Translations under genes and position numbers: made by a program | Shown here: positions 1 through 20,000 of the stretch, piece by piece | Numbering within the stretch: position 1 is the first letter of the stretch | Layout of the letters: each line of letters starts with the position of its first letter | Origin: an uncultured virus (IMG/VR IMGVR_UViG_3300017912_003267) | Taxonomy: Duplodnaviria; Heunggongvirae; Uroviricota; Caudoviricetes | Direction: 5' to 3' (one strand) | IMG/VR virus record: IMGVR_UViG_3300017912_003267 | DNA: 20,000 nt | Notes under the pieces: model-generated | What the model was told of the DNA's origin: nothing | Databases searched by the model: none | What the model saw: only the letters and a program-made list of their open reading frames with translations

Positions 1-2
1 CA

Positions 3-5525: not shown

Positions 5526-5528
5526 ATA
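5522..5528 (+). promoter_or_regulatory. Possible T4-type late promoter (CTAAATA)
   Basis: CTAAATA overlaps the tail-fibre stop codon about 25 nt upstream of the next structural gene. It resembles the TATAAATA/TAAATA late promoter of T4-like phages, but the motif is short. Confidence 0.45.
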
Positions 5529-5551
5529 ATATATAAACAGGCGATGTAGAG

Positions 5552-6484: not shown

Positions 6485-6485
6485 C

Positions 6486-6872
6486 ATGTCATACATTGGA
6501 TCTAAAAACTTTAAAGATTGGGCGAAAAGTTATACGGAGGCAGTTGATAATGCTCTAGTTCTATTGAGAACTGTAGGACCAGATAATGTAACTGATGATG
6601 TAAAAGCAAATAAGATTTACTCGGCATATTATTTGAATATGCAAACAGAGCACCCAGGTATTTTTGATAAACTATTATATAATGAATTCACATTTGTAGA
6701 GTTTGATACAGAACAAGAAGCATTGGACTTTGTTATTGATAATTTTCCTAACACTGTAACAGATGATTTGGATTATTTTGTACAGTATGTGGTATTTTGT
6801 GGTGGAGCAGTAATCAGAACCAATAATGGTCTCACTGGTCTTGCTGAACCAGCTCCAGAACCACTTGAATAA
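6486..6872 (+). CDS. Hypothetical phage protein (128 aa)
   Basis: ORF with a strong SD (AGGAGG, 6475-6480). Last gene of the structural block. Confidence 0.75.
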   Translation: MSYIGSKNFKDWAKSYTEAVDNALVLLRTVGPDNVTDDVKANKIYSAYYLNMQTEHPGIFDKLLYNEFTFVEFDTEQEALDFVIDNFPNTVTDDLDYFVQYVVFCGGAVIRTNNGLTGLAEPAPEPLE

Positions 6873-6913
6873 CTGGCACAGACCGCCCACCACGGGCGGT
6901 TTTCTGCTATAAT
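6859..6913 (+). promoter_or_regulatory. Dispersed dyad-hairpin-(-10) element, copy 1
   Basis: AACCA-cttgaataac-TGGCACA, hairpin ACCGCCC/GGGCGGT, extended -10 TGcTATAAT (6905-6913), upstream of the helicase ATG at 6939. Confidence 0.8.
6882..6904 (+). terminator. Intrinsic terminator-like hairpin ending the structural block (embedded in element copy 1)
   Basis: ACCGCCC-accac-GGGCGGT followed by TTT, 10 nt after the stop at 6872. Confidence 0.55.
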
Positions 6914-6938
6914 TACAGGGTAGTCAGCAAGGCAATCG

Positions 6939-8186
6939 ATGCTCACCCTTCGTCCTCACCAGCAGCGTGCTCTCACTGCTCTTGAGAACAACACTCACGG
7001 TCAAGTCATTGTTCCCACTGGTGGTGGCAAGACTATTATCATGATCAAGGATGCTCAGCGTCGTCTGACTGCTGCCACCACGCCACAGACTATTGTAGTG
7101 GTCGCCCCACGTATTCTGCTGGCAAACCAACTCTGTGATGAGTTCTGGTCTGCTTTCAATGGTGATGTCAATGCTGAGTTCTTCCATGTTCACAGTGGTG
7201 AGACTTCTTTCGGTAGTAGCACTAAGGTTCAGAAGATTCAATGTCACGATGCTGTCTGTAAGACTGCTGGTATTCACCAAGTTATCTTCACCACCTACAA
7301 TTCGCTCCGTCGTGTTGTAGAAGCAGGCATTGATATTGACTGTATCTATTACGATGAGGCACACAACTCTGTTCGTCGTGACTTCTTTGAATCTGTTCTT
7401 GAAGTTGATGCCAAGTCCTACTATTTCTTCACTGCTACTCCTAAGCACACTCGTTCTGCTTATGGTCGTGGCATGAACAACAGCATGGTTTACGGTCCTA
7501 TTCTTGAGACTGTTCCTGCTCCCGAACTTGTCAACAACGGCAGCATTCTTGCTCCTGAGGTTGTCTCTTACGAGGTTGACTTCGAGCGAGTCAAGGGTAA
7601 GTTCTCTTACGAGTCTGACAAGGACACTCTCACCAATCTCATCAATGACATTGATGCTGATGGTAACAAGATCCTGGTTGCTGCTCCTAGCAGTAAGATC
7701 ATGTTCAACCTGCTGTCTAAGACTAATATCCTTCAATACTTTCATGACAAAGGTTATGATGTGCTTCACATCACCAGCAAGTATGGTGCTTATGTGAACA
7801 AGACTAAGGTCAACCGTGAGCAGTTCTTCGACACTTTCAATGCTTGGGGCAAAGATCCTAACCGTAAGTTTGTGATCTTCCACTACAGCATCCTGTCTGA
7901 AGGCATCAACGTCCACGGTCTAACACACTGTGTATTCCTTCGTCAACTGGATGTCATCCAAATGGCACAGACTGTCGGTCGTGTCATTCGTCTTAACAAA
8001 GACGACGCTGCTGACATTGCTTGTGGTAAGATTATCCCAGGTAAGTTTGACATGTACCGTAAGTCTACTGGCAAGGTCATTGTTCCTGTCTTCAAGAACT
8101 ACGGCACTCCCACTATCAAACGCCTTCAAAACCTTGTCGATACTATCTTCGTCAAGGGTCTCCCTGCTGTTTCTGTCACTGTCTGA
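6939..8186 (+). CDS. Superfamily 2 DEAD/DEAH-box helicase/ATPase (restriction ResIII-like)
   Basis: Q-motif LRPHQ, Walker A PTGGGKT, Ia VAPRILLANQ, Walker B YYDEAH, III FTAT, V ILSEGINV, VI QTVGRVIR. Confidence 0.9.
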   Translation: MLTLRPHQQRALTALENNTHGQVIVPTGGGKTIIMIKDAQRRLTAATTPQTIVVVAPRILLANQLCDEFWSAFNGDVNAEFFHVHSGETSFGSSTKVQKIQCHDAVCKTAGIHQVIFTTYNSLRRVVEAGIDIDCIYYDEAHNSVRRDFFESVLEVDAKSYYFFTATPKHTRSAYGRGMNNSMVYGPILETVPAPELVNNGSILAPEVVSYEVDFERVKGKFSYESDKDTLTNLINDIDADGNKILVAAPSSKIMFNLLSKTNILQYFHDKGYDVLHITSKYGAYVNKTKVNREQFFDTFNAWGKDPNRKFVIFHYSILSEGINVHGLTHCVFLRQLDVIQMAQTVGRVIRLNKDDAADIACGKIIPGKFDMYRKSTGKVIVPVFKNYGTPTIKRLQNLVDTIFVKGLPAVSVTV

Positions 8187-8188
8187 TT

Positions 8189-9157
8189 ATGAAATCCACT
8201 CGTATCACTGGTCACCAAATTCTTACTTGGGAACAGGTACAGGGTCTCCTGGCAAATGAGGAGACCTTGCTAACTGGAGGTGCTGCTATTCGTGAGAAAG
8301 CATACACTGTGGACACTACTTGGGCAGCAGCAGAAGAGTATTATTACGCTCACAGCACTGCTGACCGTGCCCAAATTCGTAAGACTGGACAGCAGAATCA
8401 GATCGGTTGGTGGGATCCTGCTACCCAGACTCACACAGACAATCCTACCCATGCCCGTGGCATCTTGGTCTGTCAAATGTACCTGAACCAGGATCGTAAG
8501 TGTGCTTACACTGGCACTGGTCCTTACAGCATTCTTGACTACCAAGTGGAGCACATTGAGCCCAATGGTGGTGATCATCCTGACAACATGCTGCTGGTAG
8601 TTTACAACGTCAATGAAAACCGTAAGCAGTCCACCATGGATGGGTTCATTGCCCGCTGGCGCAAACGTGCTTCCAAAGGAATGGAAGAATACAACAAATG
8701 GTACGATGATACCATGAAAGCATCTGCTAAGGGGCAGAAAGAGAAAGTTAAGATTCTCAGTATGGATGAGGAAGAACTTAAAACCTTTGCTCCCAACTGT
8801 GCCAAGAAGTACCACAAATATATGTGGAGAAACATTGGTATGTCATCTCTTCAACCTTTCCGTTTGACTAAGAAAGGTGTGGCACGTGCTGGTGGTAGTC
8901 AGGGCAACTACAAAGAGGTTCTGAACACTGTCCTACAAGAGTATTTGTATGGAGACAAGAATCTAGCAGCACAGATCTTCCACACTGTTCGCTCTGGTGC
9001 TGACCGCTATGTTCGTGGATTCATTAACAACACGGATTATATTGAGATGATGTGTGTTGCCATTGAGTTGTCAAATCATGTGGCAGCAGAGTATAATAAG
9101 GAAAAGTTTACCGCTAAAGTCCTCCGTAACACCTATTCATGGCCCCATCTAAAGTAA
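8189..9157 (+). CDS. HNH endonuclease-domain protein
   Basis: MYLNQDRKCAYTG...YQVEHIEP...DHPDNMLLV..NVNENRK matches a beta-beta-alpha-metal HNH motif. Starts 2 nt after the helicase stop. Confidence 0.75.
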   Translation: MKSTRITGHQILTWEQVQGLLANEETLLTGGAAIREKAYTVDTTWAAAEEYYYAHSTADRAQIRKTGQQNQIGWWDPATQTHTDNPTHARGILVCQMYLNQDRKCAYTGTGPYSILDYQVEHIEPNGGDHPDNMLLVVYNVNENRKQSTMDGFIARWRKRASKGMEEYNKWYDDTMKASAKGQKEKVKILSMDEEELKTFAPNCAKKYHKYMWRNIGMSSLQPFRLTKKGVARAGGSQGNYKEVLNTVLQEYLYGDKNLAAQIFHTVRSGADRYVRGFINNTDYIEMMCVAIELSNHVAAEYNKEKFTAKVLRNTYSWPHLK

Positions 9158-9978
9158 CAAACCATTCTCTCTACCGATATGCTGGTGGGAAGAATCGTAT
9201 GAAGAAGGATCTTATCAAGATTATTCGTGATGTCAACCCAGGCATCGAATATCTTGTGTCGCCCTTCTGGGGTGGTGGCAGCACTGAGATGCTGATCGCC
9301 AGTGAGGGAGTCAAGGTCCAAGGTTATGATGTCTTCCGCCCCCTGGCAGACTTCTGGGAGATTGTGTGTGGTGATGGTGGTGCTGCCATCCTTGCCGACA
9401 TGGCGGAGCAGCACTATCCGCTAGTTGATAGTGATCACTACAAAACGTTCCTCCCAGGGTTAGATAGTGAGGATAAATGGGAGCGAGCACTGTCATTTTA
9501 CATTGCAATCAAGGGTTCGTACTCAGGTAAGATCGGATGTTCTACTGTTCGTAGTAGAGCAGAGTTCAGATTGGTGGGCATTGATAAACTTAGGAATTTT
9601 CATGCTCCCAACGTGACGTTTTGCCATGGGTCGTGCTTCGATACGATCCCAGCACACGAAAATGACTTCTTATACCTGGACCCACCATATTATGAGACTG
9701 TGAGTCACTACTATGGCAAAGATGGTGCTCTCCACAAGTCATTTGATCATGAAAGGTTCTGTGAGACACTCAAACAGCACAAAGGTGGGTTTGTGATGTC
9801 CTATGACAATAGTGATGCTGTCCGTGCTCTTTATGATGGGTGGACTGAGTTCAGGTATCTTACATTTCCATATCAAATGTCTGGTACTAAGCGATATGAC
9901 AAGACAGAACTAGTTATTGTTAAATATCCTGAAAAGGTAACACCTAGACAAAATATACTAGAGGCATTCATGGTATGA
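9139..9978 (+). CDS. Dam-family (D12 class) DNA N6-adenine methyltransferase
   Basis: N-terminal RYAGGK, SAM-binding SPFWGGGS, catalytic YLDPPY, C-terminal FVMSYDN...ELVI. Overlaps the HNH gene by 19 nt. Confidence 0.9.
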   Translation: MAPSKVTNHSLYRYAGGKNRMKKDLIKIIRDVNPGIEYLVSPFWGGGSTEMLIASEGVKVQGYDVFRPLADFWEIVCGDGGAAILADMAEQHYPLVDSDHYKTFLPGLDSEDKWERALSFYIAIKGSYSGKIGCSTVRSRAEFRLVGIDKLRNFHAPNVTFCHGSCFDTIPAHENDFLYLDPPYYETVSHYYGKDGALHKSFDHERFCETLKQHKGGFVMSYDNSDAVRALYDGWTEFRYLTFPYQMSGTKRYDKTELVIVKYPEKVTPRQNILEAFMV

Positions 9979-10214
9979 GCATATATTACTCTTTTCTTAT
10001 CACTATTTTTGGTGTTGTACTAGTGTTAATGTTGACTGATCCTAACATTGGTTATTGGATTGACTTACAGGCACAAAATGCTATAATACAACTGAAGCGA
10101 CGATACTATATCATCACATTAGGTGTAGTTGTCAAGTTTCAGACTTGGAGATTAAAACGAGAGATTGAAAAGATTAGAAGAGAGTACAATCTACCCGAGG
10201 ATAACAATGGATGA
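9975..10214 (+). CDS. Small hypothetical protein with an N-terminal hydrophobic helix
   Basis: ATGA overlap with the MTase stop. Hydrophobic stretch YYSFLITIFGVVLVLML. Confidence 0.6.
   Translation: MSIYYSFLITIFGVVLVLMLTDPNIGYWIDLQAQNAIIQLKRRYYIITLGVVVKFQTWRLKREIEKIRREYNLPEDNNG
10060..10087 (+). promoter_or_regulatory. Host-like sigma70 promoter (internal to an ORF)
   Basis: TTGACT-N16-TATAAT with an extended TG (TGcTATAAT). Confidence 0.55.
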
Positions 10215-10461
10215 ATATTCAAGACAACGTAAGGAAAGATTACAAGAAGCAATAGATGATTATCTCCTAGATGATGCTGTTCCTAGCAGACGAATCTATG
10301 AGGAGATGCTGTCTTGTATTGATGATACACTCTCATACTACGAGAAACAAGCAGATAGAATCAAGGATCTAAAAGATCTGATGATGGGTCACCGCTTGGT
10401 TGACGATATGGAGGATCTAGCTGTAAAATGGCAGTATGATAAACTACCAGACCGATACTAA
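10207..10461 (+). CDS. Hypothetical protein (MDEYSRQRKERLQEAIDDY...)
   Basis: ATG at 10207, preceded by GAGGA, is a better start than the TTG at 10165. Confidence 0.7.
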   Translation: MDEYSRQRKERLQEAIDDYLLDDAVPSRRIYEEMLSCIDDTLSYYEKQADRIKDLKDLMMGHRLVDDMEDLAVKWQYDKLPDRY

Positions 10462-10625
10462 TGATACTTGAATTATCATCCAATCAAGTCAAGTTTCTTA
10501 TGGACTTAATGATGGGTTGTCCTCTTGGATTTACCAAAGATCATGCCATTGATAATAACATCTGTGATAGCTGTCTTTATAACTATTTGGAGCAACGTTA
10601 TCGGGAGGAACTAGATGAGAGTTGA
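10461..10625 (+). CDS. Small hypothetical protein (54 aa, MILELSSNQVKFLMD...)
   Basis: Translated by hand. TAATG coupling to the upstream stop; fills the gap before the oxygenase gene. Confidence 0.6.
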   Translation: MILELSSNQVKFLMDLMMGCPLGFTKDHAIDNNICDSCLYNYLEQRYREELDES

Positions 10626-11121
10626 ACGTAATGTGCTTGACATGGGACTATTCAATAAAGTGGTAGATCATGCTAAGCGGAACTTTGCTCAAAACAAACA
10701 CACATATGAGGATAATCGTGATCTTTGGCAGGCAAACTTAGTACAAAACTTGTCGGGACCATGTTGGGTAACTGAAGTAGAAGAAACTTGGAGTGTTGTC
10801 CTTGAACAAAAACTCAGTAAGTATTTTCCTTCTTATAGCAAATTGAATATGATGTGGTATGTGTGGCAGAAGGGTTCTGGTATCAACTGGCACACCGATT
10901 TTCCTCACAAATTCACAGCTTCTTTATATCTTACCAGTAGTGTTCGTGAAGATGGGGGAACATTGATATGGCAAGATCATGATGATTATAGTATTCATGG
11001 ATTCATGGCAAAGCAAAATTGTATGTCCATCAATGTGAAGAATGAGCATCACATGGTCACACCAGTGGGGCAATCTAAAGAGAAAGACCGATATACCATC
11101 CAGATCTTTGGACAGTTCTAG
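10615..11121 (+). CDS. 2OG-Fe(II) oxygenase
   Basis: HxD (WHTD), ASLYL, GGTL, distal H (HMVTPV) and R (RYTIQ). SD GGAGG upstream. Confidence 0.85.
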   Translation: MRVERNVLDMGLFNKVVDHAKRNFAQNKHTYEDNRDLWQANLVQNLSGPCWVTEVEETWSVVLEQKLSKYFPSYSKLNMMWYVWQKGSGINWHTDFPHKFTASLYLTSSVREDGGTLIWQDHDDYSIHGFMAKQNCMSINVKNEHHMVTPVGQSKEKDRYTIQIFGQF

Positions 11122-11165
11122 CAGTGTCCACTCTAGTGGCACAGGCACCCAGAACCATGTATATT
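11110..11165 (+). promoter_or_regulatory. Dispersed element, copy 2
   Basis: GGACA-gttctagcag-TGTCCAC, a second GTGGCACA at 11136-11143, -10 TATATT at 11160-11165. The upstream stop (11119-11121) lies in the spacer. Confidence 0.7.
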
Positions 11166-11188
11166 AAAAGGGTCAAAGGAACACACCC

Positions 11189-11431
11189 ATGAGACTGCTC
11201 ACTTCCGCCACACAAGTTGACTTCTATCCTGTTGCTGGTGGCAAGCGTTTCGTCAAGCGTGTCATCTGGCACCCCACTGAAGAGATCTCTCAGCAGATGA
11301 CATCTTTCACCACTCGTGTCAAGTCTGACGCTCTCTACGACATCCGTAACTACCTTGCCAACGGTGCTGAGGTTGTTGACTTCAACACTGAAGCATACAC
11401 TGGTAAAGATTACTCTCCTGTCTACTGCTGA
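11189..11431 (+). CDS. Hypothetical protein (80 aa)
   Basis: First ORF after element copy 2, with AAGGA upstream. Confidence 0.75.
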   Translation: MRLLTSATQVDFYPVAGGKRFVKRVIWHPTEEISQQMTSFTTRVKSDALYDIRNYLANGAEVVDFNTEAYTGKDYSPVYC

Positions 11432-11436
11432 TTATT

Positions 11437-11604
11437 ATGATCACTTCCAAGGCATACATGATTAACATCATGAAAAAATGTGAGTATGCAGATACTCTCA
11501 CCCGAGAAGAAAAGTTTCAAGTCTTCTGTAGAGTATGTGACAACATGCTCAAAGAAGGTAGAATGACCAAAACAACACACAAACGATTCACGGAGATCTG
11601 GTAA
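11437..11604 (+). CDS. Small hypothetical protein (55 aa, MITSKAYMINIMKKC...)
   Basis: Translated by hand; tightly packed between neighbours. Confidence 0.6.
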   Translation: MITSKAYMINIMKKCEYADTLTREEKFQVFCRVCDNMLKEGRMTKTTHKRFTEIW

Positions 11605-11771
11605 TGACTAATCCATTTTCTTTGACTTTCGACGATTTGATTGAACAAATGGCAAATGATCCCATGTTTATCCAAGCATGTGAGGAGAACAATCGTATGT
11701 GGGATGAAGAAGCAGCAGCAGAGTTGGAGGTGACAGTTGATGAACTTCATCATATGATGAAGAATAAGTAG
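11604..11771 (+). CDS. Small acidic hypothetical protein (55 aa, MTNPFSLTFDDLIEQ...)
   Basis: Translated by hand; TAATG coupling. Confidence 0.6.
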   Translation: MTNPFSLTFDDLIEQMANDPMFIQACEENNRMWDEEAAAELEVTVDELHHMMKNK

Positions 11772-11784
11772 TACCGTTACACAA

Positions 11785-11937
11785 ATGACTATTATGGACG
11801 ATCGTACTGCTGCTATGTTTGAAGAGCTTAAAGATCTTCTCAAAACTCTTCAACATCGTATTGATGAACAGGATTCTTACATCAAAGAACTTCAGCAAGA
11901 GATGGCAGATATGGAGAACAAAGAATATGATTGCTGA
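11785..11937 (+). CDS. Small coiled-coil-like hypothetical protein (50 aa, MTIMDDRTAAMFEELK...)
   Basis: Translated by hand; heptad-like L/I spacing. Confidence 0.55.
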   Translation: MTIMDDRTAAMFEELKDLLKTLQHRIDEQDSYIKELQQEMADMENKEYDC

Positions 11938-12193
11938 CATTATTGTTGATCTAGAAGATCATATTCGTAATGGAAATGTCTACCTAGTTGAAGTAGAAAT
12001 GTCATGGGTTGATGACAAAGCAGAGCCAGATAATGGATGTATCAACTATCATCTATATCTAATTGCTACGTCTAGTGCTCAAGCTTCTTACTTAGCTTCT
12101 TGCCTGTATCCTAATGCTGACGGAATCTATGTCCACGACGAACCAATCACGGAATTCGAGTATGCTTCCCGTAGGAACAGAAGTATATTATAA
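11927..12193 (+). CDS. Hypothetical protein (MIADIIVDLEDH...)
   Basis: ATG at 11927 avoids a long overlap with the previous ORF; it is the C-terminal part of track ORF 11819..12193. Confidence 0.6.
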   Translation: MIADIIVDLEDHIRNGNVYLVEVEMSWVDDKAEPDNGCINYHLYLIATSSAQASYLASCLYPNADGIYVHDEPITEFEYASRRNRSIL

Positions 12194-12353
12194 GGGTCAC
12201 TTCGGTATAGTAAAATTTGCATGTGAAGACTCTATGTCAATTTGTGTCAGGATATTCCCTGACGAACCATCCAGAAATGTCTGTTTGGTAGTATATAAAT
12301 GGGACTTCGATGAAGTCGAACTAACAACTGGTAATCAAGCACAACGAGACTAA
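12162..12353 (+). CDS. Small hypothetical beta-rich protein (MLPVGTEVYYKGHFGIV...)
   Basis: ATG at 12162 within track ORF 12114..12353; SH3-like pattern (inference). Confidence 0.6.
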   Translation: MLPVGTEVYYKGHFGIVKFACEDSMSICVRIFPDEPSRNVCLVVYKWDFDEVELTTGNQAQRD

Positions 12354-12481
12354 TGAATGATTTTGAAGGCGACATCTTTGGCGATTATGAGCTCCGAGAG
12401 AGTATTATTCGAGAAATGAGTGAACAAGAATTGTGGGAGACGCCTGAGACCCTGCCAGAAGACCTTCTAGCAGACTTTTAA
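12353..12481 (+). CDS. Small acidic hypothetical protein (42 aa, MNDFEGDIFGDYELRE...)
   Basis: Translated by hand; TAATG coupling; ends 3 nt before element copy 3. Confidence 0.55.
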   Translation: MNDFEGDIFGDYELRESIIREMSEQELWETPETLPEDLLADF

Positions 12482-12484
12482 GGC

Positions 12485-12541
12485 ACCCAGCGTACAAAGT
12501 GTCACAAGACCCCTTCAGGACGCCCTGGAGGGGTTTATACT
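12485..12541 (+). promoter_or_regulatory. Dispersed element, copy 3
   Basis: ACCCA-gcgtacaaag-TGTCACA, hairpin ACCCCTTCAGG/CCTGGAGGGGT (12509-12534), -10 TATACT at 12536-12541, ATG at 12548. Confidence 0.8.
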
Positions 12542-12547
12542 GTATAC

Positions 12548-13285
12548 ATGATTGAGTTACCCAATGATTTTCCCCATCAACCCCCAGAAGGATATTTCTA
12601 CGAGACGGTATCATTTAAACGTTCTGTTCATGCAATTTGGCTTGTATCTAATCGTGGGTGGATTTACAATGGTGGCGATCAATGTCGCACTATCTGGGGA
12701 TTCTACAATACAAAGAAGCGTACCTACCATGCTCCAATCAACTCCAAGCGAGTCGGAGACACGGTAGATCCAGAGAAGACGAGAGCATGGACCGCCATGC
12801 CACTCCTCAAACTGGCACTAGACTCCGCCGATCCGCCCTCGGCACCCTCTATACTTAGTTTCATACCAACGGACGACGACTCCATGACTGCTCAATCCTT
12901 CGCTGACTTCGCTGCCACTCAGCAGGCACGGAATGACATCCAACTCAATGTCCGCAAGTACACTCTCATGCTGTGTGATGCCCTGGAGCAGAACTTCAAG
13001 GATCGTAACCACGGTAAAATCGGTCAGCATGAGGCACCTGAGTACAAGTTTGTGATCGAGTCTGGTCGTAAGTATCACAAGATCATCATGGAGGTTCCTA
13101 ACCACAATCGTCCTCCCTCCCGTAGTGTTCACGCTTTCGTGGATAAGAAGACTGGTGAAGTCTACAAACCAGCATCGTTCAAAGCACCTGCTAAGCACGT
13201 CCGCTTCAACCTGCTCGTTATCACCGAACGTGAATGGTTGCTCCAACATGCCGATTGGGCAGGTGGTTATCTCTATAAGCGTTGA
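12548..13285 (+). CDS. Hypothetical protein, apparently an in-frame fusion of two small phage genes (second start at 12884)
   Basis: 245-aa ORF with element copy 4 (12798-12855) inside it, encoding a low-complexity linker, followed by an in-frame ATG at 12884. Confidence 0.65.
   Translation: MIELPNDFPHQPPEGYFYETVSFKRSVHAIWLVSNRGWIYNGGDQCRTIWGFYNTKKRTYHAPINSKRVGDTVDPEKTRAWTAMPLLKLALDSADPPSAPSILSFIPTDDDSMTAQSFADFAATQQARNDIQLNVRKYTLMLCDALEQNFKDRNHGKIGQHEAPEYKFVIESGRKYHKIIMEVPNHNRPPSRSVHAFVDKKTGEVYKPASFKAPAKHVRFNLLVITEREWLLQHADWAGGYLYKR
12798..12855 (+). promoter_or_regulatory. Dispersed element, copy 4 (intragenic)
   Basis: TGCCA-ctcctcaaac-TGGCACT, hairpin GCCGA/TCGGC (12827-12843), -10 TATACT at 12850-12855. 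Confidence 0.8.
12884..13285 (+). CDS. Hypothetical protein (MTAQSFADF...GRKYHKI...SVHAFVDKKTGEVYKPAS..APAK.VRF), probably independently expressed
   Basis: In-frame ATG 28 nt after the -10 of copy 4; the sequence reads as a self-contained phage domain. Confidence 0.65.
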   Translation: MTAQSFADFAATQQARNDIQLNVRKYTLMLCDALEQNFKDRNHGKIGQHEAPEYKFVIESGRKYHKIIMEVPNHNRPPSRSVHAFVDKKTGEVYKPASFKAPAKHVRFNLLVITEREWLLQHADWAGGYLYKR

Positions 13286-13287
13286 GG

Positions 13288-13316
13288 TTGACAGCAGAGA
13301 CTTTCTCTGCTAAATT
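13288..13316 (+). promoter_or_regulatory. Host-like sigma70 promoter with a palindromic spacer
   Basis: TTGACA-N17-TAAATT with an extended TG. The spacer is the inverted repeat AGCAGAGA-ctt-TCTCTGCT. Confidence 0.75.
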
Positions 13317-13345
13317 ATTATAGCACCTCTACTTTTCTCAAACAA

Positions 13346-13567
13346 ATGGACACCGATCTGATGTATGTTGTGGTCAATGGTGAAGCCATTATGATTGAAA
13401 ATGGCATCCCTGTGACTTACCTCATTGATGACAATGATGGTACTATTGATTGGACTTCTCAGGATACTATTGACTGGGAAGATCTTCTCCCTGGTAGTTA
13501 CCAGATGTACAAATCTGCTGTAGACTTCCTTGAGACCTATTCTTCTAGCTACATTTACACCAAATGA
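13346..13567 (+). CDS. Small acidic hypothetical protein (73 aa)
   Basis: ORF directly downstream of the sigma70 promoter. Confidence 0.7.
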   Translation: MDTDLMYVVVNGEAIMIENGIPVTYLIDDNDGTIDWTSQDTIDWEDLLPGSYQMYKSAVDFLETYSSSYIYTK

Positions 13568-13791
13568 CTCAATTTTCATACATTTCAGATCTCTTTGCTC
13601 CCATCAATTATGATGAGAGTCCTGTTCGTATTCGTCCACGGGAAGACCTGGAAGAGGATATGGTTAACAAATTTTGGAGATATCACGGACGCTTCCCAAA
13701 TGACTTCGCCCGTGCTATTATAGAGATCCTGCCAGAGGACAAGACCTTTGTCAGCTATGATCACCTTGCCAATTCGCTTGTAACCAAATGA
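13564..13791 (+). CDS. Hypothetical protein (75 aa)
   Basis: ATGA coupling at both ends. Confidence 0.7.
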   Translation: MTQFSYISDLFAPINYDESPVRIRPREDLEEDMVNKFWRYHGRFPNDFARAIIEILPEDKTFVSYDHLANSLVTK

Positions 13792-14015
13792 ACCCGCTCC
13801 AACAAGAACAAGAATCAATTTGCTATCAAGTTGATAAGATCATGACCAATCGTCATCGTCGTTTCATGTTTCTGATGAAGAAAGATCGTATTGATGATGC
13901 TATTGCTATTGGTGAAGAGTTTCAAGAGTGGATGTATCTTGGTGATGACAGTCATGATGATGAAGAACTATTGTACTTCCGTCTTGATGATTTGATGGAT
14001 ATGACTAATGGATGA
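13788..14015 (+). CDS. Hypothetical protein (75 aa)
   Basis: ATGA coupling. Confidence 0.7.
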   Translation: MNPLQQEQESICYQVDKIMTNRHRRFMFLMKKDRIDDAIAIGEEFQEWMYLGDDSHDDEELLYFRLDDLMDMTNG

Positions 14016-14640
14016 ATTTATTAGTCATAAACCACTCGTTGGTAAACAAAGTGGTTTTCAATGGTATGTACAAGATACCAGATTACCTGATGGTTTATGT
14101 GATTCAATCACTGAATACTTTGAGGATAATGTAGAACCAAAACCAGGATTAAATATGGGTGATACTGACCCTGATTATCGTAAGGTTGATGCTCGTTGGG
14201 CACAACCTCACGATTGGGTTGGTCCCTTTATTTGGAGTTATATTGAACGTATCAATCATGAAAACTTTCAATATGATCTTTCTCATTTAGCATTTAATGA
14301 AGTACATCATTTGACCTATGGTGTTGGTCATCAGTATCGTTGGCATTCTGATGATACTATTGCTATGACAACACGTCGTGGTCCAATTAGTTGGGAATGT
14401 ATTGATTTAGTTCATCTAGAATATACAAGAAAACTTAGTTTTACTCTTCAACTTTCCCATCCTGATGAGTATACTGGTGGTGATTTACAAATTATAGATG
14501 TGCCACATATGTTTTGGTGTCCTAAAGATAAGGGATCATTGATGGTATTTGATTCACGTCTTACTCATCGTGTATTACCTGTTAAATCTGGACAGCGGAA
14601 ATGTTTAGTAGGATGGGTATTAGGACCTCGTTGGAAGTAA
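14008..14640 (+). CDS. 2OG-Fe(II) oxygenase (prolyl-4-hydroxylase/PKHD-like)
   Basis: YRWHSD, RKLSFTLQLS..EYTGGDL, FDSRLTHRVLPVKSGQRKCLVGW. Confidence 0.9.
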   Translation: MDEFISHKPLVGKQSGFQWYVQDTRLPDGLCDSITEYFEDNVEPKPGLNMGDTDPDYRKVDARWAQPHDWVGPFIWSYIERINHENFQYDLSHLAFNEVHHLTYGVGHQYRWHSDDTIAMTTRRGPISWECIDLVHLEYTRKLSFTLQLSHPDEYTGGDLQIIDVPHMFWCPKDKGSLMVFDSRLTHRVLPVKSGQRKCLVGWVLGPRWK

Positions 14641-14643
14641 ACT

Positions 14644-15321
14644 ATGAAAAACATGTTCATTGCTGCTCTCACAGCATTATCACTAGGTACAGCACATGTA
14701 GCACTAGCGAATGAGGATAAAATCACCAAAGGATTCTATTCAATGGATGCTATGGGTTGTATGCTACTCCGTGAATGTACGGATGGTGTTGAGGAAGTAC
14801 ACTCTCTCCTGGATATCTCATCACAATATGATGACCCAGAGCGTTACACACCAGTAGCACAAGAGTTTAATACCATGTTGATGACTCTTAATCAAATTGG
14901 TATTAAAGTATTCCTTGCTGATGAGAAGTATTTCCCATCACTTCATCGTGGTGTTTATCATACAGTATCCAATAATTTCTATCTCAATAGGACGTACATG
15001 GATGAACCACATGTATTGATGATGGTAATGAGACATGAAGGATGGCATGCAGCACAAGATTGTATGGCAGGTAGTATTGACAATAGCTTGGTTGCTATTA
15101 TAATGCCAGAAGAAGAAGTTCCTATCCTATGGCGTACACTAGCAGAACGTACTTATCCTGAACATGCTGTACCATGGGAAGCAGAAGCAGGTTGGGCAGG
15201 TAGAACTGAAAACATGACCATGAAAGCATTACAATCCTGTGCTGCTGGTACGATGTGGACAGATTATGAACCGACTCCGTTAACATATAAATGGTTACGA
15301 GAGAATAATTACGTAGACTAA
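14644..15321 (+). CDS. Exported HEXXH zinc-metallopeptidase-like protein
   Basis: Signal-peptide-like N-terminus (MKNMFIAALTALSLGTAHVALA), HEGWH motif, downstream WEAEA as a candidate third ligand. Confidence 0.65.
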   Translation: MKNMFIAALTALSLGTAHVALANEDKITKGFYSMDAMGCMLLRECTDGVEEVHSLLDISSQYDDPERYTPVAQEFNTMLMTLNQIGIKVFLADEKYFPSLHRGVYHTVSNNFYLNRTYMDEPHVLMMVMRHEGWHAAQDCMAGSIDNSLVAIIMPEEEVPILWRTLAERTYPEHAVPWEAEAGWAGRTENMTMKALQSCAAGTMWTDYEPTPLTYKWLRENNYVD

Positions 15322-15734
15322 TGGGTATGTTTGATACAATTCATTGTTCCTATGATCTAGGACCAGGCTTTCACAATAAAACATTACAGACCAAGGATAT
15401 ATCATCCACAATGTCTGAATTCTGGTTATCACCTAACGGTGAATTGTATCTGATTGACTACAGTGGTACACAAGACTTTGTATTGGGTGATCAACCACCA
15501 TTCCACAAACCTAACGGTTGTCGTGGTAGAGTTGTCGCCACCGAATTTCATGGTAGAATAGAAGTGTACCCAGAAGTATGGACAGCACATTATGCCCCCT
15601 TCCCTAGACTAATGCTTACTTTTATTCATGGTAAAATCCAAGACACAATCCAATCTATCAAAAAATTTAAAAAATCTTACTACTACCAACCAATCGACTA
15701 CCAAACGCTCTCGGAAGAAGGTTTCCAAGAATAA
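15321..15734 (+). CDS. Hypothetical phage protein (MGMFDTI...LQTKD...)
   Basis: TAATG coupling; 137 aa. Confidence 0.7.
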   Translation: MGMFDTIHCSYDLGPGFHNKTLQTKDISSTMSEFWLSPNGELYLIDYSGTQDFVLGDQPPFHKPNGCRGRVVATEFHGRIEVYPEVWTAHYAPFPRLMLTFIHGKIQDTIQSIKKFKKSYYYQPIDYQTLSEEGFQE

Positions 15735-15915
15735 TACTATTAAAGTACAAAACTCTCGTAAAAAAGAGAACTTCCCATGGATTGAAACTTTCCCCATCTT
15801 TCTTCTTAATAGATCAGAAGATAAACGTTGTTGGTTTACTTGTATCGATCATGCCCAAAAGTATATCGATAGATATAATCCACAATACTCATGCTATCAA
15901 TATACAGGTAAATAA
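15628..15915 (+). CDS. Basic hypothetical protein (95 aa)
   Basis: K/T/N-rich N-terminus overlaps the previous gene by 107 nt, so the start is uncertain. The C-terminal half looks globular (FPIFL...CWF). Confidence 0.55.
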   Translation: MVKSKTQSNLSKNLKNLTTTNQSTTKRSRKKVSKNNTIKVQNSRKKENFPWIETFPIFLLNRSEDKRCWFTCIDHAQKYIDRYNPQYSCYQYTGK

Positions 15916-15918
15916 CAC

Positions 15919-16068
15919 ATGACTCAACGACAATGGCAAGAAGTAGAAGCAATCGTTCGTAAAGAACAATCAAAAGCATTACAACAATTTAATACACATC
16001 GTTATGATGAACTTAAATTAATCCTTGATGAACTATACAATCTAGCACACCAATGTACGAAGAACTAA
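15919..16068 (+). CDS. Small hypothetical protein (49 aa, MTQRQWQEVEAIVRKEQ...)
   Basis: Translated by hand; fills the gap. Confidence 0.55.
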   Translation: MTQRQWQEVEAIVRKEQSKALQQFNTHRYDELKLILDELYNLAHQCTKN

Positions 16069-16247
16069 ACTGTTTTGAAGAAGCACTAAAGCATTTTGGT
16101 ACAAGAGTAGAAATCATTACTGCTATGGAAATGGCACGTAAGATCTCTGCTGAAGATGCTTACCAAATGATTAAAAATGAACTTAAAGACGTAAAGCTAT
16201 GTCGTAAACAATTTAATAAACATGAACCCCTCAGTAATAACAATTGA
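16053..16247 (+). CDS. Small hypothetical protein (MYEELNCFEEALKHFGTRVE...)
   Basis: 64-aa helical ORF in the tight operon. Confidence 0.7.
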   Translation: MYEELNCFEEALKHFGTRVEIITAMEMARKISAEDAYQMIKNELKDVKLCRKQFNKHEPLSNNN

Positions 16248-16827
16248 AACTGATTGTTCCCCTCTAGTCTTACAAGAGATCACTAACGATCTACAACAAT
16301 ATGAACAAAAACCAGCACTTACAGCACCTACTAAACAATACCCCGATGGTAAACTAGACACATCAACACGTAATTGTACATCAGCATCTCTACCTACATC
16401 TAAATGGTATGCTGGTATGTTGTGGCATCATATCTCACGTGTTAATCAACAACTATTCCATTACGATATCACTTGCTTCGATCAAGATACGATCACGTAC
16501 ATATCATATACTGATCAACAACACTATAACTGGCACATCGATGTAAATCCCCCTACTAATAACATATACCGTAGACCACAAGAAAATACACCAGTACAAC
16601 ATACTAACAACTATCAACGTAAACTATCATTCTCCTTCATCCTCTCTAACAACTATACAGGAGGAGAACTAGAAGTAAAAGATATAGCAGATAATACTAC
16701 ATCACATTCACCTAAGCAAGGTCAACTACTCATCTTTGATTCAAGACTAAAACATAGAGTAACACCTATTCAATCAGGTAGACGTGATGTTCTAGTAGGT
16801 TGGGCAATAGGTCCACAATGGAGATAG
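16222..16827 (+). CDS. 2OG-Fe(II) oxygenase (paralogue of 14008..14640)
   Basis: YNWHID, RKLSFSFILS.NYTGGEL, FDSRLKHRVTPIQSGRRDVLVGW. Confidence 0.88.
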   Translation: MNPSVITIETDCSPLVLQEITNDLQQYEQKPALTAPTKQYPDGKLDTSTRNCTSASLPTSKWYAGMLWHHISRVNQQLFHYDITCFDQDTITYISYTDQQHYNWHIDVNPPTNNIYRRPQENTPVQHTNNYQRKLSFSFILSNNYTGGELEVKDIADNTTSHSPKQGQLLIFDSRLKHRVTPIQSGRRDVLVGWAIGPQWR

Positions 16828-16970
16828 TAACTCCACAGCTACTCACAAGTATCCACATAGGCACTCTCCAGTGTACATCAGCACTCTTTAACGTAATTAT
16901 ACTCCCTTGTGGAAAAACCTGTGGAAAAGTTAAGATGTTAATTAATGTTTAAAAAAATATAGGTAACGTT
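16809..16970. other. DnaA-box-like cluster plus AT-rich tract (candidate replication origin)
   Basis: TGTGGAAAA (reverse complement TTTTCCACA) at 16908-16916 and 16920-16928. GTATCCACA at 16849-16857. TCCACA also at 16812 and 16832. AT-rich 16930-16970. Confidence 0.45.
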
Positions 16971-17030
16971 CTGTAATGTACGGAGGTGTTGTTGTCTTAG
17001 CACACCACCCAACGACTGTCAAGCACTCGT

Positions 17031-17088
17031 AGACACCCCTTGTAGTGGCACACAGACCCCTCTCAGGGCATCCTAGGCACTGTATAAT
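17031..17088 (+). promoter_or_regulatory. Dispersed element, copy 5
   Basis: AGACA-ccccttgtag-TGGCACA, -10 TATAAT at 17083-17088. No real ORF follows for about 130 nt. Confidence 0.75.
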
Positions 17089-17096
17089 TACTATGT

Positions 17097-17188
17097 TCTG
17101 AAAAATCGAAAAAAGTCAAAAAACTCAAAAAACCAAAAAGTTTAATTTTTAAAAAAGTGAGATTTTTGAGTTTTTTCGTTTTTTCAGA
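17097..17188. repeat. Long A-tract/T-tract inverted repeat
   Basis: TCTGAAAAATCGAAAAAA (17097-17114) pairs with TTTTTTCGTTTTTTCAGA (17171-17188) at 17/18 positions. AAAAAACTCAAAAA (17118-17131) pairs with TTTTTGAGTTTTTT (17163-17176). Confidence 0.85.
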
Positions 17189-17217
17189 TTTTAAAATAGT
17201 TAAACTTTAACAATTTC

Positions 17218-17457
17218 ATGTTAATCTCACATTTTGATAGTACAGCTATTGAAAGTATTGAATTAGTATCAAATAAAAGCTTTGATATGACTATTATTTT
17301 CAAAAATAGTAATAAATCATACAATTATATTATTAATAACGAAGATTTTAGAAAAAATCTGTTATTGAGTCTATTAGCTGAAGCAAGTATTGGTAGATTA
17401 ATCAACAAATCCATCAAAAATGAGGATATTGTTGTACTAAATACTGGCAAAGTTTGA
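17218..17457 (+). CDS. KTSC-domain-like small protein
   Basis: STAIESIE....MTIIFKN.NKSYNY...SIGRLIN resembles the KTSC pattern (SS.I..v.Y...L.I.F..G..Y.Y...S.G.f.n). Very AT-rich. Confidence 0.5.
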   Translation: MLISHFDSTAIESIELVSNKSFDMTIIFKNSNKSYNYIINNEDFRKNLLLSLLAEASIGRLINKSIKNEDIVVLNTGKV

Positions 17458-17479
17458 TATCAAGTATTACCACAGATTA

Positions 17480-17641
17480 ATGGCAAAAACTAATCGTAAT
17501 TCCACTCAATCTTACAAAGCACAGTTTGAAGATGAGTACGAAGATTTCGGGTATAATGTAAAGAATGCCCGAAGATATCAGTCAAAACAGAAACGTACCC
17601 CAAAGTTTAAAGATTACAGTGACTACGAGGACAGTTATTGA
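17480..17641 (+). CDS. Small hypothetical protein (53 aa, MAKTNRNSTQSYKAQFEDEY...)
   Basis: Translated by hand; its stop lies in the spacer of element copy 6. Confidence 0.6.
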   Translation: MAKTNRNSTQSYKAQFEDEYEDFGYNVKNARRYQSKQKRTPKFKDYSDYEDSY

Positions 17642-17684
17642 AGTGTCCATTATTTGCTGACAGACGCTAAATTTCATGTATTGT
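17629..17684 (+). promoter_or_regulatory. Dispersed element, copy 6
   Basis: GGACA-gttattgaag-TGTCCAT, -10 TATTGT at 17679-17684. Shares TGTATTGTATAGAAGTC with copy 7. Confidence 0.7.
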
Positions 17685-17706
17685 ATAGAAGTCGTCAGGA
17701 ATTGTT

Positions 17707-17949
17707 ATGAATCAATCTGATCTCTTCACTCTTAAAGAGAACTATGCCAACCTAATTGTGGATGGCATGGATATAGATACGTTGGCACAATTTGCCTACG
17801 ATTCTATCATGGATAATCTGAAAGATTATGAAGAGCAAGATTTAGAGGCAGAAATCACTGATCTTTATGGTGAAGAAACTTACAAAGATTTGGCAGACGT
17901 TGATGATGTCAAAGTGACCTATGGGCAGACGATGAATGCTGCCAGTTGA
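17707..17949 (+). CDS. Acidic hypothetical protein (80 aa)
   Basis: AGGA upstream; a single gene bracketed by element copies 6 and 7. Confidence 0.75.
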   Translation: MNQSDLFTLKENYANLIVDGMDIDTLAQFAYDSIMDNLKDYEEQDLEAEITDLYGEETYKDLADVDDVKVTYGQTMNAAS

Positions 17950-17996
17950 GATAGTGGCACACAGGGGGTTGTGATTGCCCCCTGATCCTGTATTGT
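17940..17996 (+). promoter_or_regulatory. Dispersed element, copy 7
   Basis: TGCCA-gttgagatag-TGGCACA, hairpin CAGGGGG/CCCCCTG (17962-17984), -10 TATTGT at 17991-17996. Confidence 0.8.
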
Positions 17997-18023
17997 ATAG
18001 AAGTCAACCAAACGACACCAAAC

Positions 18024-18374
18024 ATGCGTAAGATCGAACAGCAAATGTGTGCCGCTATTCAGGCAAACAAGAACTGGCAATCTGCTAACACTGCTGTTAC
18101 CTTTGATCCTGAAACTGGCATCTCTACAGTGTTTCTCCATGGCAACAAGATTGCTGAGGTTAGTGACACTGACATGACAATCTTTGATGGTGGATGGCAA
18201 TCCAACACCACAAAGTCTCGTCTCAATGCTCTCTGTTCTGAGTTTTGTATTGCTGGTGAAGGTGTCTTTCAGAAGAACTTTCAGTGGTTTGTTCGTAAGT
18301 TTGTCGGACAATCTTCCATCACTGGTAAAGTCTTCAACGTAGAAGATTTTGAGAATGGTTTTGTCTTCGCTTGA
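18024..18374 (+). CDS. Hypothetical phage protein (MRKIEQQM...LHGNKIA...GGWQSNTTKSRLNAL)
   Basis: 116-aa ORF after element copy 7. Confidence 0.8.
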   Translation: MRKIEQQMCAAIQANKNWQSANTAVTFDPETGISTVFLHGNKIAEVSDTDMTIFDGGWQSNTTKSRLNALCSEFCIAGEGVFQKNFQWFVRKFVGQSSITGKVFNVEDFENGFVFA

Positions 18375-18419
18375 CACATTACAATATGCCCCATTTACCC
18401 ACTGGGGTAGATGATGTTC

Positions 18420-18445
18420 ACCACCGTCGTCGGTGGTATTTTTTT
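18420..18445 (+). terminator. Rho-independent terminator
   Basis: ACCACCG-tcgt-CGGTGGT followed by A and T7. Confidence 0.75.
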
Positions 18446-18470
18446 ATCTACAAATGTTGGAGGTTTGTTA

Positions 18471-18593
18471 ATGACAGTTCAGGAAATGTATGATGAAATG
18501 GTAGAACAATCTATAGAAGATAGCTATTATGAAATTCAGGACTATGACGATCATTGTGACATCATAGAGGTTGAATATACCACTCAAAATTAA
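18471..18593 (+). CDS. Small acidic protein (40 aa, MTVQEMYDEMVE...)
   Basis: GGAGG 7 nt before ATG 18471. The track start at 18411 would span the terminator. Confidence 0.55.
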   Translation: MTVQEMYDEMVEQSIEDSYYEIQDYDDHCDIIEVEYTTQN

Positions 18594-18610
18594 TCAATCA
18601 TCTTTTAATC

Positions 18611-18811
18611 ATGAATTTTCAAGTCACACAAATCGAGTTTGATTTTGATGATGAATTTGGACCTTATCCCGAAGAAGAGAAACAAGGTGCAATCAATCAA
18701 ACGATGTCAACAATTTGGTATGCAGTTGATGAGGATGATCTCATTGAAGAAATCACATGTGCATCAGGTTGGTGTGTCAAATCCATTGATTATAAAATAG
18801 TATTGGACTAG
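18611..18811 (+). CDS. Acidic hypothetical protein (66 aa)
   Basis: ORF with DEDDLIEEIT..SGWCV.SIDY. Confidence 0.75.
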   Translation: MNFQVTQIEFDFDDEFGPYPEEEKQGAINQTMSTIWYAVDEDDLIEEITCASGWCVKSIDYKIVLD

Positions 18812-18847
18812 TTAACCAGTTAGTGATACAAACTGCGCTAGCTGCGT

Positions 18848-18906
18848 GACCAGTTGGCGAAGTGGCACAGTACCGACCCCAAACGTCCCCACCCTGTGCC
18901 TATAAT
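18848..18906 (+). promoter_or_regulatory. Dispersed element, copy 8
   Basis: GACCA-gttggcgaag-TGGCACA, inverted repeat GGCACAG/CTGTGCC, -10 TATAAT at 18901-18906, ATG at 18913. Confidence 0.8.
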
Positions 18907-18912
18907 GGTTTC

Positions 18913-19077
18913 ATGAAAACAAACAACCCCTACGTTCAACAGATCCTCTCCAAGGGTCGTGATTATGTTCCCACCCCTGCTAAGTTGGGTGAGTTTCCTA
19001 AGACTATCCATGGTCGAGTTTTTAACACTGAAGAGGAGTATCGTGAGGCACTCGCTGACTTCATGAACGGTCTTTGA
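18913..19077 (+). CDS. Small hypothetical protein (54 aa, MKTNNPYVQQILSKG...)
   Basis: ATG 6 nt after the -10 of copy 8. The track start at 18862 lies inside the element. Confidence 0.7.
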   Translation: MKTNNPYVQQILSKGRDYVPTPAKLGEFPKTIHGRVFNTEEEYREALADFMNGL

Positions 19078-19241
19078 TGTATACTGACCCTTGCACAATT
19101 GCCCTTCGCTTTGATAAACTAATGTGGGATGAAATCATGGACATGCCAGGTGAAATATTCGACCTGGACATTGATGATCGTGAGATGATGCCACCTGACA
19201 TGCAGGATGACATTGAAAAAGACGATCCTCTTCTAGACTGA
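19077..19241 (+). CDS. Small acidic protein (54 aa, MYTDPCTIALRFDKLMWDEIMDMPGEIFD...)
   Basis: Translated by hand; TGATG coupling; start uncertain. Confidence 0.55.
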   Translation: MYTDPCTIALRFDKLMWDEIMDMPGEIFDLDIDDREMMPPDMQDDIEKDDPLLD

Positions 19242-19263
19242 TCCTAACCTCTTCACAATCATC

Positions 19264-19512
19264 ATGAACAAAATGTCAACCAAAGGCAACTATTCTTTCT
19301 ACAAGGTAGAGATCGAGATTATAGAATCTCCCCACCATCCGATCATCTTCTTTAGAAAAGAACGTAAGTGCAAGACTGCTAAGGGCATGGATAGGCAACA
19401 CAATCGAGTTGTGAACGAGACTATAGAACAGTGGAGACAGTATGATCAACAGATCCGCCGTTACACTGTCTCACGTGTGCCAGCAGACAAGGTGGACTAT
19501 GTGGTGAACTGA
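19264..19512 (+). CDS. Basic hypothetical protein (82 aa)
   Basis: ORF whose 3' end runs into element copy 9. Confidence 0.7.
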   Translation: MNKMSTKGNYSFYKVEIEIIESPHHPIIFFRKERKCKTAKGMDRQHNRVVNETIEQWRQYDQQIRRYTVSRVPADKVDYVVN

Positions 19513-19535
19513 TCGCCACCCTGACCCCTTATAAT
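19478..19535 (+). promoter_or_regulatory. Dispersed element, copy 9
   Basis: TGCCA-gcagacaagg-TGGAC, hairpin GTGGTGA/TCGCCAC (19501-19519), -10 TATAAT at 19530-19535, ATG at 19542. Confidence 0.75.
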
Positions 19536-19541
19536 TGACCC

Positions 19542-19733
19542 ATGAACACAAACGACATGAACCACGATCAACGCTTCTGCCGTGCTCCTTACCGTGCCAC
19601 CTTTGCTGATCTGACGGGACGGGCAGGGCAACCCATGGACTTCGACGGCGACTTCGACGATCACTTCACAGCAGAAGACTACGACCGCCGTCGTTGGGAA
19701 CGTGATGCCCGACGCTATGGGTACGGTCGCTGA
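19542..19733 (+). CDS. Small hypothetical protein (63 aa; alternative start at 19557)
   Basis: Single gene bracketed by element copies 9 and 10. Confidence 0.65.
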   Translation: MNTNDMNHDQRFCRAPYRATFADLTGRAGQPMDFDGDFDDHFTAEDYDRRRWERDARRYGYGR

Positions 19734-19777
19734 ACCGTCCCCCATGGGGCAGACTTCGCCCCATGACCGTCTAGGAT
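19721..19777 (+). promoter_or_regulatory. Dispersed element, copy 10 (divergent)
   Basis: GTACG-gtcgctgaac-CGTCC, hairpin CATGGGGC/GCCCCATG (19743-19765), -10 TAGGAT at 19772-19777. Confidence 0.6.
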
Positions 19778-19802
19778 ACACACAACACACAAACGACACA
19801 CG

Positions 19803-20000
19803 ATGAACGGTTGGAAAAATTGGGAGACCTGGAATGTCGCCCTCTGGATTCAGAATGACGAGACGACCTACAAGGTCGCCCAGAAATACGACTCCTACGA
19901 TCATCTCATCCCCCGTCTAGAATTGATGTGGGGACAGATGACCCCTGACGGTGCCCGTTGGATGGATGGACGGATCGACACCGATGAGTTGGATGAGATG
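19803..20000 (+). CDS. Hypothetical phage protein, 3'-truncated (MNGWKNWETWNVALWIQNDE...)
   Basis: Translated by hand; open to the end of the window. The NGW.N.ETWNVALWI.ND pattern is one I recall from small phage proteins. Confidence 0.7.
   Translation, partial: MNGWKNWETWNVALWIQNDETTYKVAQKYDSYDHLIPRLELMWGQMTPDGARWMDGRIDTDELDEM

Follow-up and report, generated by a model that had tools for sequence, protein, structure and literature searches.

A promoter-like back-to-back dyad of T4-like cyanophages recurs in host Yfr2 promoters, with the host regulator PlmA as a candidate reader

What reads the ten copies of a two-armed DNA element that stand, each at a fixed distance from a -10 box, in an array of mostly small phage genes? 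The stretch analyzed here (the window) comprises 20,000 nucleotides (nt) and is the last 20 kb of a linear virus contig of 72,397 bases (IMG/VR record IMGVR_UViG_3300017912_003267) with an estimated completeness of 38%. DNA of the contig matches 371 phage records, 306 of which are Synechococcus phages (e.g., S-CAM3, S-H9-1, Sf-FP1, and S-WAM2), and its source is thus a T4-like cyanomyovirus. As far as our literature search reached, we know of no factor identified as switching on the early genes of marine T4-like cyanophages. The elements described below have a common sequence and a fixed geometry, are spread across T4-like cyanophages, and recur in host Yfr2 promoters, where both the sequence of the site and its position are the same. 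This recurrence makes PlmA, a host regulator of the GntR family, a candidate for their reader.

A preliminary description of the window, made from its letters, had listed ten pairs of 5-bp half-sites with 10-nt spacers and with -10 hexamers starting 34, 35, 36, 37, 37, 35, 36, 38, 37, and 36 nt after the start of the right half-site, and all of these were present exactly as claimed. The copies are not random: in a leave-one-out scan of both strands (144,682 positions), nine of the ten fell in the top 5, and copy 10 ranked 31st. Their scores (22.2 to 31.5) compare with a best score of 22.07 in 50 shuffled genomes, with a model trained on the same copies. The structural region of the window (positions 1 to 6858) indeed gave no plus-strand match above 14, and a weaker 11th copy lies far upstream, at contig position 6938.

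The anatomy of the element was derived from relatives. A first viral set of 117 loci was gathered via two window proteins (37 for the helicase and the best 80 of 597 for the product of the open reading frame [ORF] at 18024) and, with four named phage regions added, comprised 121 loci. A model of the dyad only found 317 sites in this set versus 8 to 10 in shuffled sequences; 206 of the sites were non-redundant, of which the 174 with a -10 box were retained and 32 were dropped. Among the 206 dyads, which were not selected for spacing, gene-strand -10 matches peaked at offsets of 35 to 38 nt (157 matches). The originally proposed site of 5 + 10 + 5 positions proved too narrow, since the dyad spans 24 bp and consists of two arms with the consensus AASTGKCAC, set back to back around a 4-nt center (157 pairs; 16 have 5 nt). 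Phage sites showed no enrichment of a third, upstream arm. In a second viral set, collected with a strict dyad pattern from 6 of the 64 parts of the collection (170 loci; 158 non-redundant sites), a -10 box lay at an offset of 34 to 38 nt in 108 of the 158 sites, versus 4 to 11 in control windows, and on both sides of the dyad in 21, versus none in six control windows.

The half-sites had also been said to covary, which was taken as selection on symmetry, and this did not hold. Across the 174 sites, no pair of arm positions exceeded shuffled arms in complementarity (z = -2.3 to +1.1), nor were the particular half-site pairs that had been singled out linked (p = 0.34 and 0.46). Independent arms, a fixed gap, a fixed distance to the -10 box, and use in both directions thus indicate a protein site and not a cruciform. 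The hairpin between dyad and -10 box, which had been regarded as a defining part, was significant in just 45 of the 174 sites, versus 9 of 174 in a control window upstream of the dyad, and 19 hairpins had a U tract. Of the six hairpins claimed for the window, those of copies 1, 3, 7, 9, and 10 were significant and that of copy 4 was weak (z = -1.6, p = 0.08); copies 2, 5, 6, and 8 have none. Most copies lack a consensus -35 box, as had been stated, but copy 6 carries a -35-like hexamer (17657 to 17662) that matches at 5 of 6 positions with 16-nt spacing. What stood was the central proposal of a promoter class with a dyad at a fixed distance, usually without a -35, for which a dimeric activator is the simplest reader. 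That the elements are promoters with a protein site we regard as highly probable.

The element itself is probably not new. In 2016, Doron et al. reportedly described a novel early-gene regulatory element in the phages Syn9 and P-TIM40, and they are said to have left its factor unidentified. Whole-genome scans with the model trained on the ten window copies found eight clustered plus-strand sites at 43.1 to 53.0 kb in Syn9 (of 15 hits) and nine clustered sites at 45.0 to 55.0 kb in P-TIM40 (of 19 hits), versus 0 to 7 in 20 shuffles of each genome. Both clusters lie in the region of small genes and adjoin the same helicase as the window array. The presence of the element in Syn9, which the preliminary description had raised as a possibility, was thereby confirmed, and the element is probably that of Doron et al. 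A second suggested likeness, to the promoter-stem-loop cassettes (PeSLs) of other T4-like phages, stood in part. The two have in common repeated promoter units among small variable genes, an optional terminator-like hairpin, and gain or loss of modules through recombination of the units, which was seen once here. PeSLs carry -35 and -10 boxes, lack a dyad, and have their stem-loop before the promoter (PMC4122927), and the window element is thus not a PeSL: its hairpin is optional and overlaps the -35 region, and its constant part is the dyad. T4 middle promoters, which depend on MotA and AsiA, are similar in that an activator site takes the place of the -35 before a sigma-70 -10 box. Unlike the two-armed window element, however, the MotA box is a single, asymmetric site at about -30 that is recognized by a protein of the phage. 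Marine T4-like cyanophages are without motA and asiA, according to a further report (PMC5780444).

The same site was found in host genomes. When the phage pattern was run against prokaryotic genomes (8 of the 64 parts of the collection), it yielded 122 loci, 35 being cyanobacterial and 33 acidobacterial by record title. A -10-like hexamer lay at 35 to 38 nt in 28 of the 35 cyanobacterial sites and 23 of the 33 acidobacterial sites, versus 5 of 57 other sites. Directly downstream of the dyad, 3 of the 20 cyanobacterial loci tested encode Cyano-1 RNA, which we take to be the Yfr2 RNA family. The 5' end of Cyano-1 agrees with the yfr primers of PMC6191309. Twelve aligned cyanobacterial loci have in common a longer RNA-like stretch with Yfr2-like ends.

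We then picked Yfr2/Cyano-1 genes by RNA family alone and sought the best match to the phage dyad model in the 200 nt upstream. Phylum-wide, this match lay at -70 to -62 in 19 of 36 Yfr2 promoters (29 best loci), with 5% expected by chance. Most Yfr2 promoters without the dyad had a TTG-type -35 (15 of 18, versus 6 of 18). Among picocyanobacteria, defined as the family of G146, a genome with an alpha-carboxysome marker, the best dyad lay at -70 to -62 in 26 of 30 Yfr2 promoters (30 of 41 genomes, each represented by its best locus); the phage left arm lies at -63 to -67. The occurrence of the site in host Yfr2 promoters, overlooked in the preliminary description, points to a host factor rather than a phage factor. 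A model trained on host sites in turn placed nine of the ten window copies in the top 15 of 72,373 positions, a result that we did not count because its training sites had been picked with the phage model and it is partly circular.

A protein that acts on Yfr2 promoters is known. According to PMC6191309, a pull-down with the yfr2 promoter recovered PMM1637, which is the PlmA of Prochlorococcus, and this protein shifted the yfr2 and yfr4 promoters and activated both; activation of yfr2 was seen in E. coli. CGRE1, the site it binds, has the same 9-bp arm as the phage element, one arm has the same orientation and distance to the -10 box as the phage left arm, and in both cases the activator would act upstream of the core promoter. 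In primer 68 (MED4 yfr2) of that paper, counted by eye, the downstream arm of CGRE1 starts 53 nt before the -10 box, which equals the phage left arm at an offset of 36 nt. The two sites differ in the partner of this arm. In CGRE1 it is paired face to face with an upstream arm around a 1- to 2-nt center, giving a site of 21 to 22 nt that ends at -55 to -57, whereas in the phage element it is paired back to back with a downstream arm around a 4-nt center, so that the phage element is not CGRE1 by definition. The positions thus define three arm slots near -75, -65, and -51, with CGRE1 occupying the first two and the phage sites and many Yfr2 promoters the last two. Both arrangements occur among picocyanobacterial Yfr2 promoters, with one arm in common. 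No PlmA site and no link between PlmA and phages appeared in the titles and abstracts of the literature searched, mostly non-subscription papers, and no GntR domain was found in the 38%-complete contig or in four of four complete relatives.

PlmA is described as confined to cyanobacteria in PMC7344720. PlmA-like GntR proteins are nevertheless encoded by Acidobacteria (loci L387, L388, and L521 to L547). Two acidobacterial dyad loci precede a GntR gene whose product aligns over about 245 residues, at 27 to 29% identity, to the one hit that each of four picocyanobacterial genomes gave. The helix-turn-helix of the picocyanobacterial hit matches, by eye, the stretch encoded by the PMM1637 primers. 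A near-full-length or long PlmA-like GntR protein was present in 30 of 32 other acidobacterial dyad genomes. The corresponding counts were 7 of 60 in an even sample of the phylum (five matches were long and two short) and 2 of 45 among other hit genomes, which represent 45 of 54 loci; both of these hits begin like cyanobacterial PlmA. This distribution suggests that PlmA may have acidobacterial relatives with the same site.

On these grounds we assign a probability of roughly 60% to PlmA as the reader of the phage elements. In the proposed mechanism, a two-armed site at about -65 to -42 would be followed at fixed spacing by a sigma-70-type -10 box. Host PlmA, as a dimer or higher oligomer, would bind the dyad on incoming phage DNA and recruit host sigma-70 polymerase to the -10 box in place of a -35. 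The small and likely early genes could then start at once, with no need for a new phage protein. Where a hairpin is present, it would probably terminate the upstream transcript and stop read-through, and similar -10/leader stretches might let whole promoter-gene modules come or go by recombination. Transcription from the sites, its early timing, binding of PlmA to back-to-back arms, and activation are all predicted here from sequence.

Several observations weigh against this assignment, the main weakness being the difference in arrangement between CGRE1 and the phage element. In PMC6191309, PMM1637 binding was seen only for face-to-face CGRE1, and the promoters of yfr3, yfr5, and PMM1637 itself were unshifted; face-to-face arm pairs are not enriched in phage loci (1 to 2, versus 157 back to back). 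The strict pattern is rare across picocyanobacterial genomes, occurring in 19 of 41 at up to two mismatches, which is below the reversed control. The common stretch in the 12 aligned loci means that most of the 35 pattern hits in cyanobacteria represent a single orthologous locus, and p-values for both the host and the acidobacterial counts come out too small because the genomes are related by ancestry. The dyad precedes the PlmA-like gene itself in 7 of 36 cases, versus 15 of 331 control windows, and mostly in one clade; self-regulation of PlmA-like genes through the dyad, which we had considered, would thus be partial only. A -35 matching at 5 or more of 6 positions is kept in 20 of the 174 phage sites and in one of the ten window copies, so that the dyad is not always a -35 substitute, and dyad strength and -35 match are uncorrelated in phage sites (rho = 0.10). 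Finally, PlmA is scarce, with 200 dimers per cell in S. elongatus as given in PMC7344720.

The arrangement problem would disappear if the elements were early promoters with a protein site read by something else, either a phage activator that is delivered with the virion or made immediately, or a different host regulator of Yfr2 promoters. Phage sites use the back-to-back arrangement only, most of the small phage genes have no known function, and the contig is 38% complete, which leaves room for such a reader. We nevertheless consider it rather unlikely, since a phage-specific factor would leave unexplained why the same site and spacing occur in host Yfr2 promoters and in Acidobacteria that encode PlmA-like proteins, and since the two arm arrangements coexist, with a common arm, in one family of Yfr2 promoters.

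Many GntR proteins are repressors, and the dyad might be an operator, at which PlmA or some other protein would modulate or silence promoters that are active without it. The 20 sites that retain a good -35, as well as copy 6, would fit such a role. However, the site is tightly spaced and sits before the polymerase core region, most copies have no -35, and PMM1637 activates yfr2 and yfr4 (PMC6191309), which makes an operator improbable.

The elements might instead be chiefly recombination cassettes, PeSL-like or integron-like, in which the dyad would be the crossover or recombinase site. A near-identical phage (L441) is 100% identical to the window over 14024 to 19804 and carries, in addition, one 184-bp unit of leader, small gene, dyad, and -10 box. 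Of 90 alignment ends, 22 fall within elements (7 of the 40 distinct ones), versus 5.8% expected, a figure that is confounded with gene boundaries, and the stop codon of the upstream gene falls within the dyad in 71 of the 174 sites. The extra L441 unit, however, is flanked by a repeat of 18 nt located at the -10 box of copy 10 (from 19770), so that the one clean crossover lies at the -10/leader and not at the dyad. The fixed distance to the -10 box and the host Yfr2 copies would also be left unexplained, and we hold this alternative to be very improbable. Hardly credible, finally, is a cruciform in which dyad and spacer hairpin extrude and are recognized by polymerase in place of a -35, since, despite strong spacer hairpins in five of the ten copies, the arms show no compensatory change and pair at 2 to 8 of 10 positions in the window copies, 129 of the 174 sites have no significant hairpin, and the spacer-edge bases are mismatched in 126 of the 158 sites of the second set.

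With the element itself probably published, the present copy adds little, and the weight lies on the identity of its reader. PlmA as reader would bear on two gaps, the factor for cyanophage early genes and the regulon of PlmA, which PMC7344720 describes as unknown while linking PlmA to PII-PipX and thioredoxin. If PlmA is indeed the reader, these ties to nitrogen signaling and redox would let the nitrogen and redox state of the host directly set the strength of the phage start, and PlmA, being scarce, could be titrated away from Yfr2 by dozens of sites on the infecting DNA. It is tempting, though we put this broader picture at somewhat less than even odds, to suppose that T4-like cyanophages plug a whole early regulon into host PlmA at the start of infection, via an old class of back-to-back-dyad, -35-less promoters that is also read by PlmA-type regulators in Acidobacteria.

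In the window, a long fibre-like gene and a tail chaperone gene, ending at 6484, precede the array of mostly small, co-oriented plus-strand genes headed by the elements (6939 to 20000), which includes genes for a helicase, an endonuclease-like protein, a methyltransferase, and 2-oxoglutarate-Fe(II) oxygenases, as well as many unknown phage families; by family matching, the majority of the small genes behind elements have no known function. All ten copies lie on the plus strand. The dyad of copy 1 (6857 to 6913; dyad, 6857 to 6880) contains the stop codon of ORF 6486-6872 and is followed by a hairpin at 6880 to 6902 with a short T tail and by a -10 box at 6908 to 6913; the helicase, endonuclease-like, and methyltransferase genes lie downstream, from 6939. 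Behind this copy, at 8189 to 9978, an HNH/endonuclease VII-like gene adjoins the DNA methyltransferase gene. Copy 2 (11108 to 11165) has its dyad at 11108 to 11131, containing the stop codon of ORF 10615-11121, an additional half-site at 11134 to 11143, and a -10 box at 11160 to 11165 ahead of an ORF from 11189. In copy 3 (12483 to 12541), the left dyad arm is degenerate, and a hairpin at 12508 to 12535 leads to the -10 box at 12536 to 12541. Copy 4 (12796 to 12855), with its -10 box at 12850 to 12855, lies within ORF 12548-13285 and is followed by an in-frame ATG at 12884. This ORF fuses two phage families that are profiled separately, phrog_573 (residues 1 to 91) and phrog_818 (residues 116 to 245), and copy 4 is read through as the linker.

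The dyad of copy 6 (17627 to 17684) contains the stop codon of ORF 17480-17641 and precedes a -10 box at 17679 to 17684 and an ORF from 17707; the stop codon of that ORF (17707 to 17949) in turn lies in the dyad of copy 7 (17938 to 17996), which continues with a hairpin at 17962 to 17984, a -10 box at 17991 to 17996, and an ORF from 18024. Copy 8 (18846 to 18906) has a dyad, no hairpin, and a -10 box at 18901 to 18906. Copy 9 (19476 to 19535) has its dyad in the 3' end of ORF 19264-19512, a hairpin at 19501 to 19519, a -10 box at 19530 to 19535, and an ATG at 19542. Copy 10 (19719 to 19777), with the most divergent dyad, contains the stop codon of ORF 19542-19733 and has a hairpin at 19743 to 19765, a -10 box at 19772 to 19777, and an ORF from 19803. 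The upstream stop codon is thus inside the dyad in five of the ten copies. At copies 3 and 8, an ATG (12548 and 18913, respectively) coincides with the predicted transcription start, as does the ATG at 19542, which suggests leaderless mRNAs; among the 174 related sites, 32 have an ATG at the predicted start.

Copy 5 (17029 to 17088; dyad, 17029 to 17052; -10 box, 17083 to 17088) is followed by a non-coding hairpin and no gene. Its dyad is shared by a predicted leftward promoter on the minus strand (16994 to 17022), with a perfect -35 (17022 to 17017), a 17-nt spacer, and a weak -10-like hexamer (16999 to 16994), at the same offset of 36 nt; this promoter-like sequence is largely kept in five of five aligned phages. 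The surrounding stretch (16790 to 17200) is a conserved non-coding locus with an outline common to the five phages. It carries two perfect 9-mers resembling DnaA boxes, both on the minus strand (16908 and 16920), and an AT-rich 92-nt hairpin after copy 5 (17097 to 17188; z = -6.5). The window as a whole is not enriched in DnaA-like boxes. The lowest cumulative GC skew in the second half of 8000 to 20000 also falls at this locus, a possible origin of replication or small RNA.

Some minor observations complete the picture. Filamentous cyanobacteria have, behind the same dyad, about 160 nt of conserved non-coding sequence with a Yfr2-like 5' end and a terminator (loci L178, L182, L189, L199, L202, L203, L209, L213, L221, L228, L238, and L243); this long Yfr2-like RNA behind the Nostocales dyad had no relevant Rfam match, and no Rfam family matched within the window. 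Sphingomonad genomes (L206, L258, L274, and L295) have tandem dyads with a 23-bp period, and neither of the two such genomes searched yielded a PlmA-like protein. Between the elements of the window, ordinary sigma-70 promoter matches with a -35 and without a dyad lie at 10060 to 10087, 13288 to 13316, and 15077 to 15104, the last being perfect and located inside a gene. The weaker 11th element (contig 6936 to 7000; G000, L571) contains the stop codon of its upstream gene and precedes a gene for a single-strand DNA binding protein.

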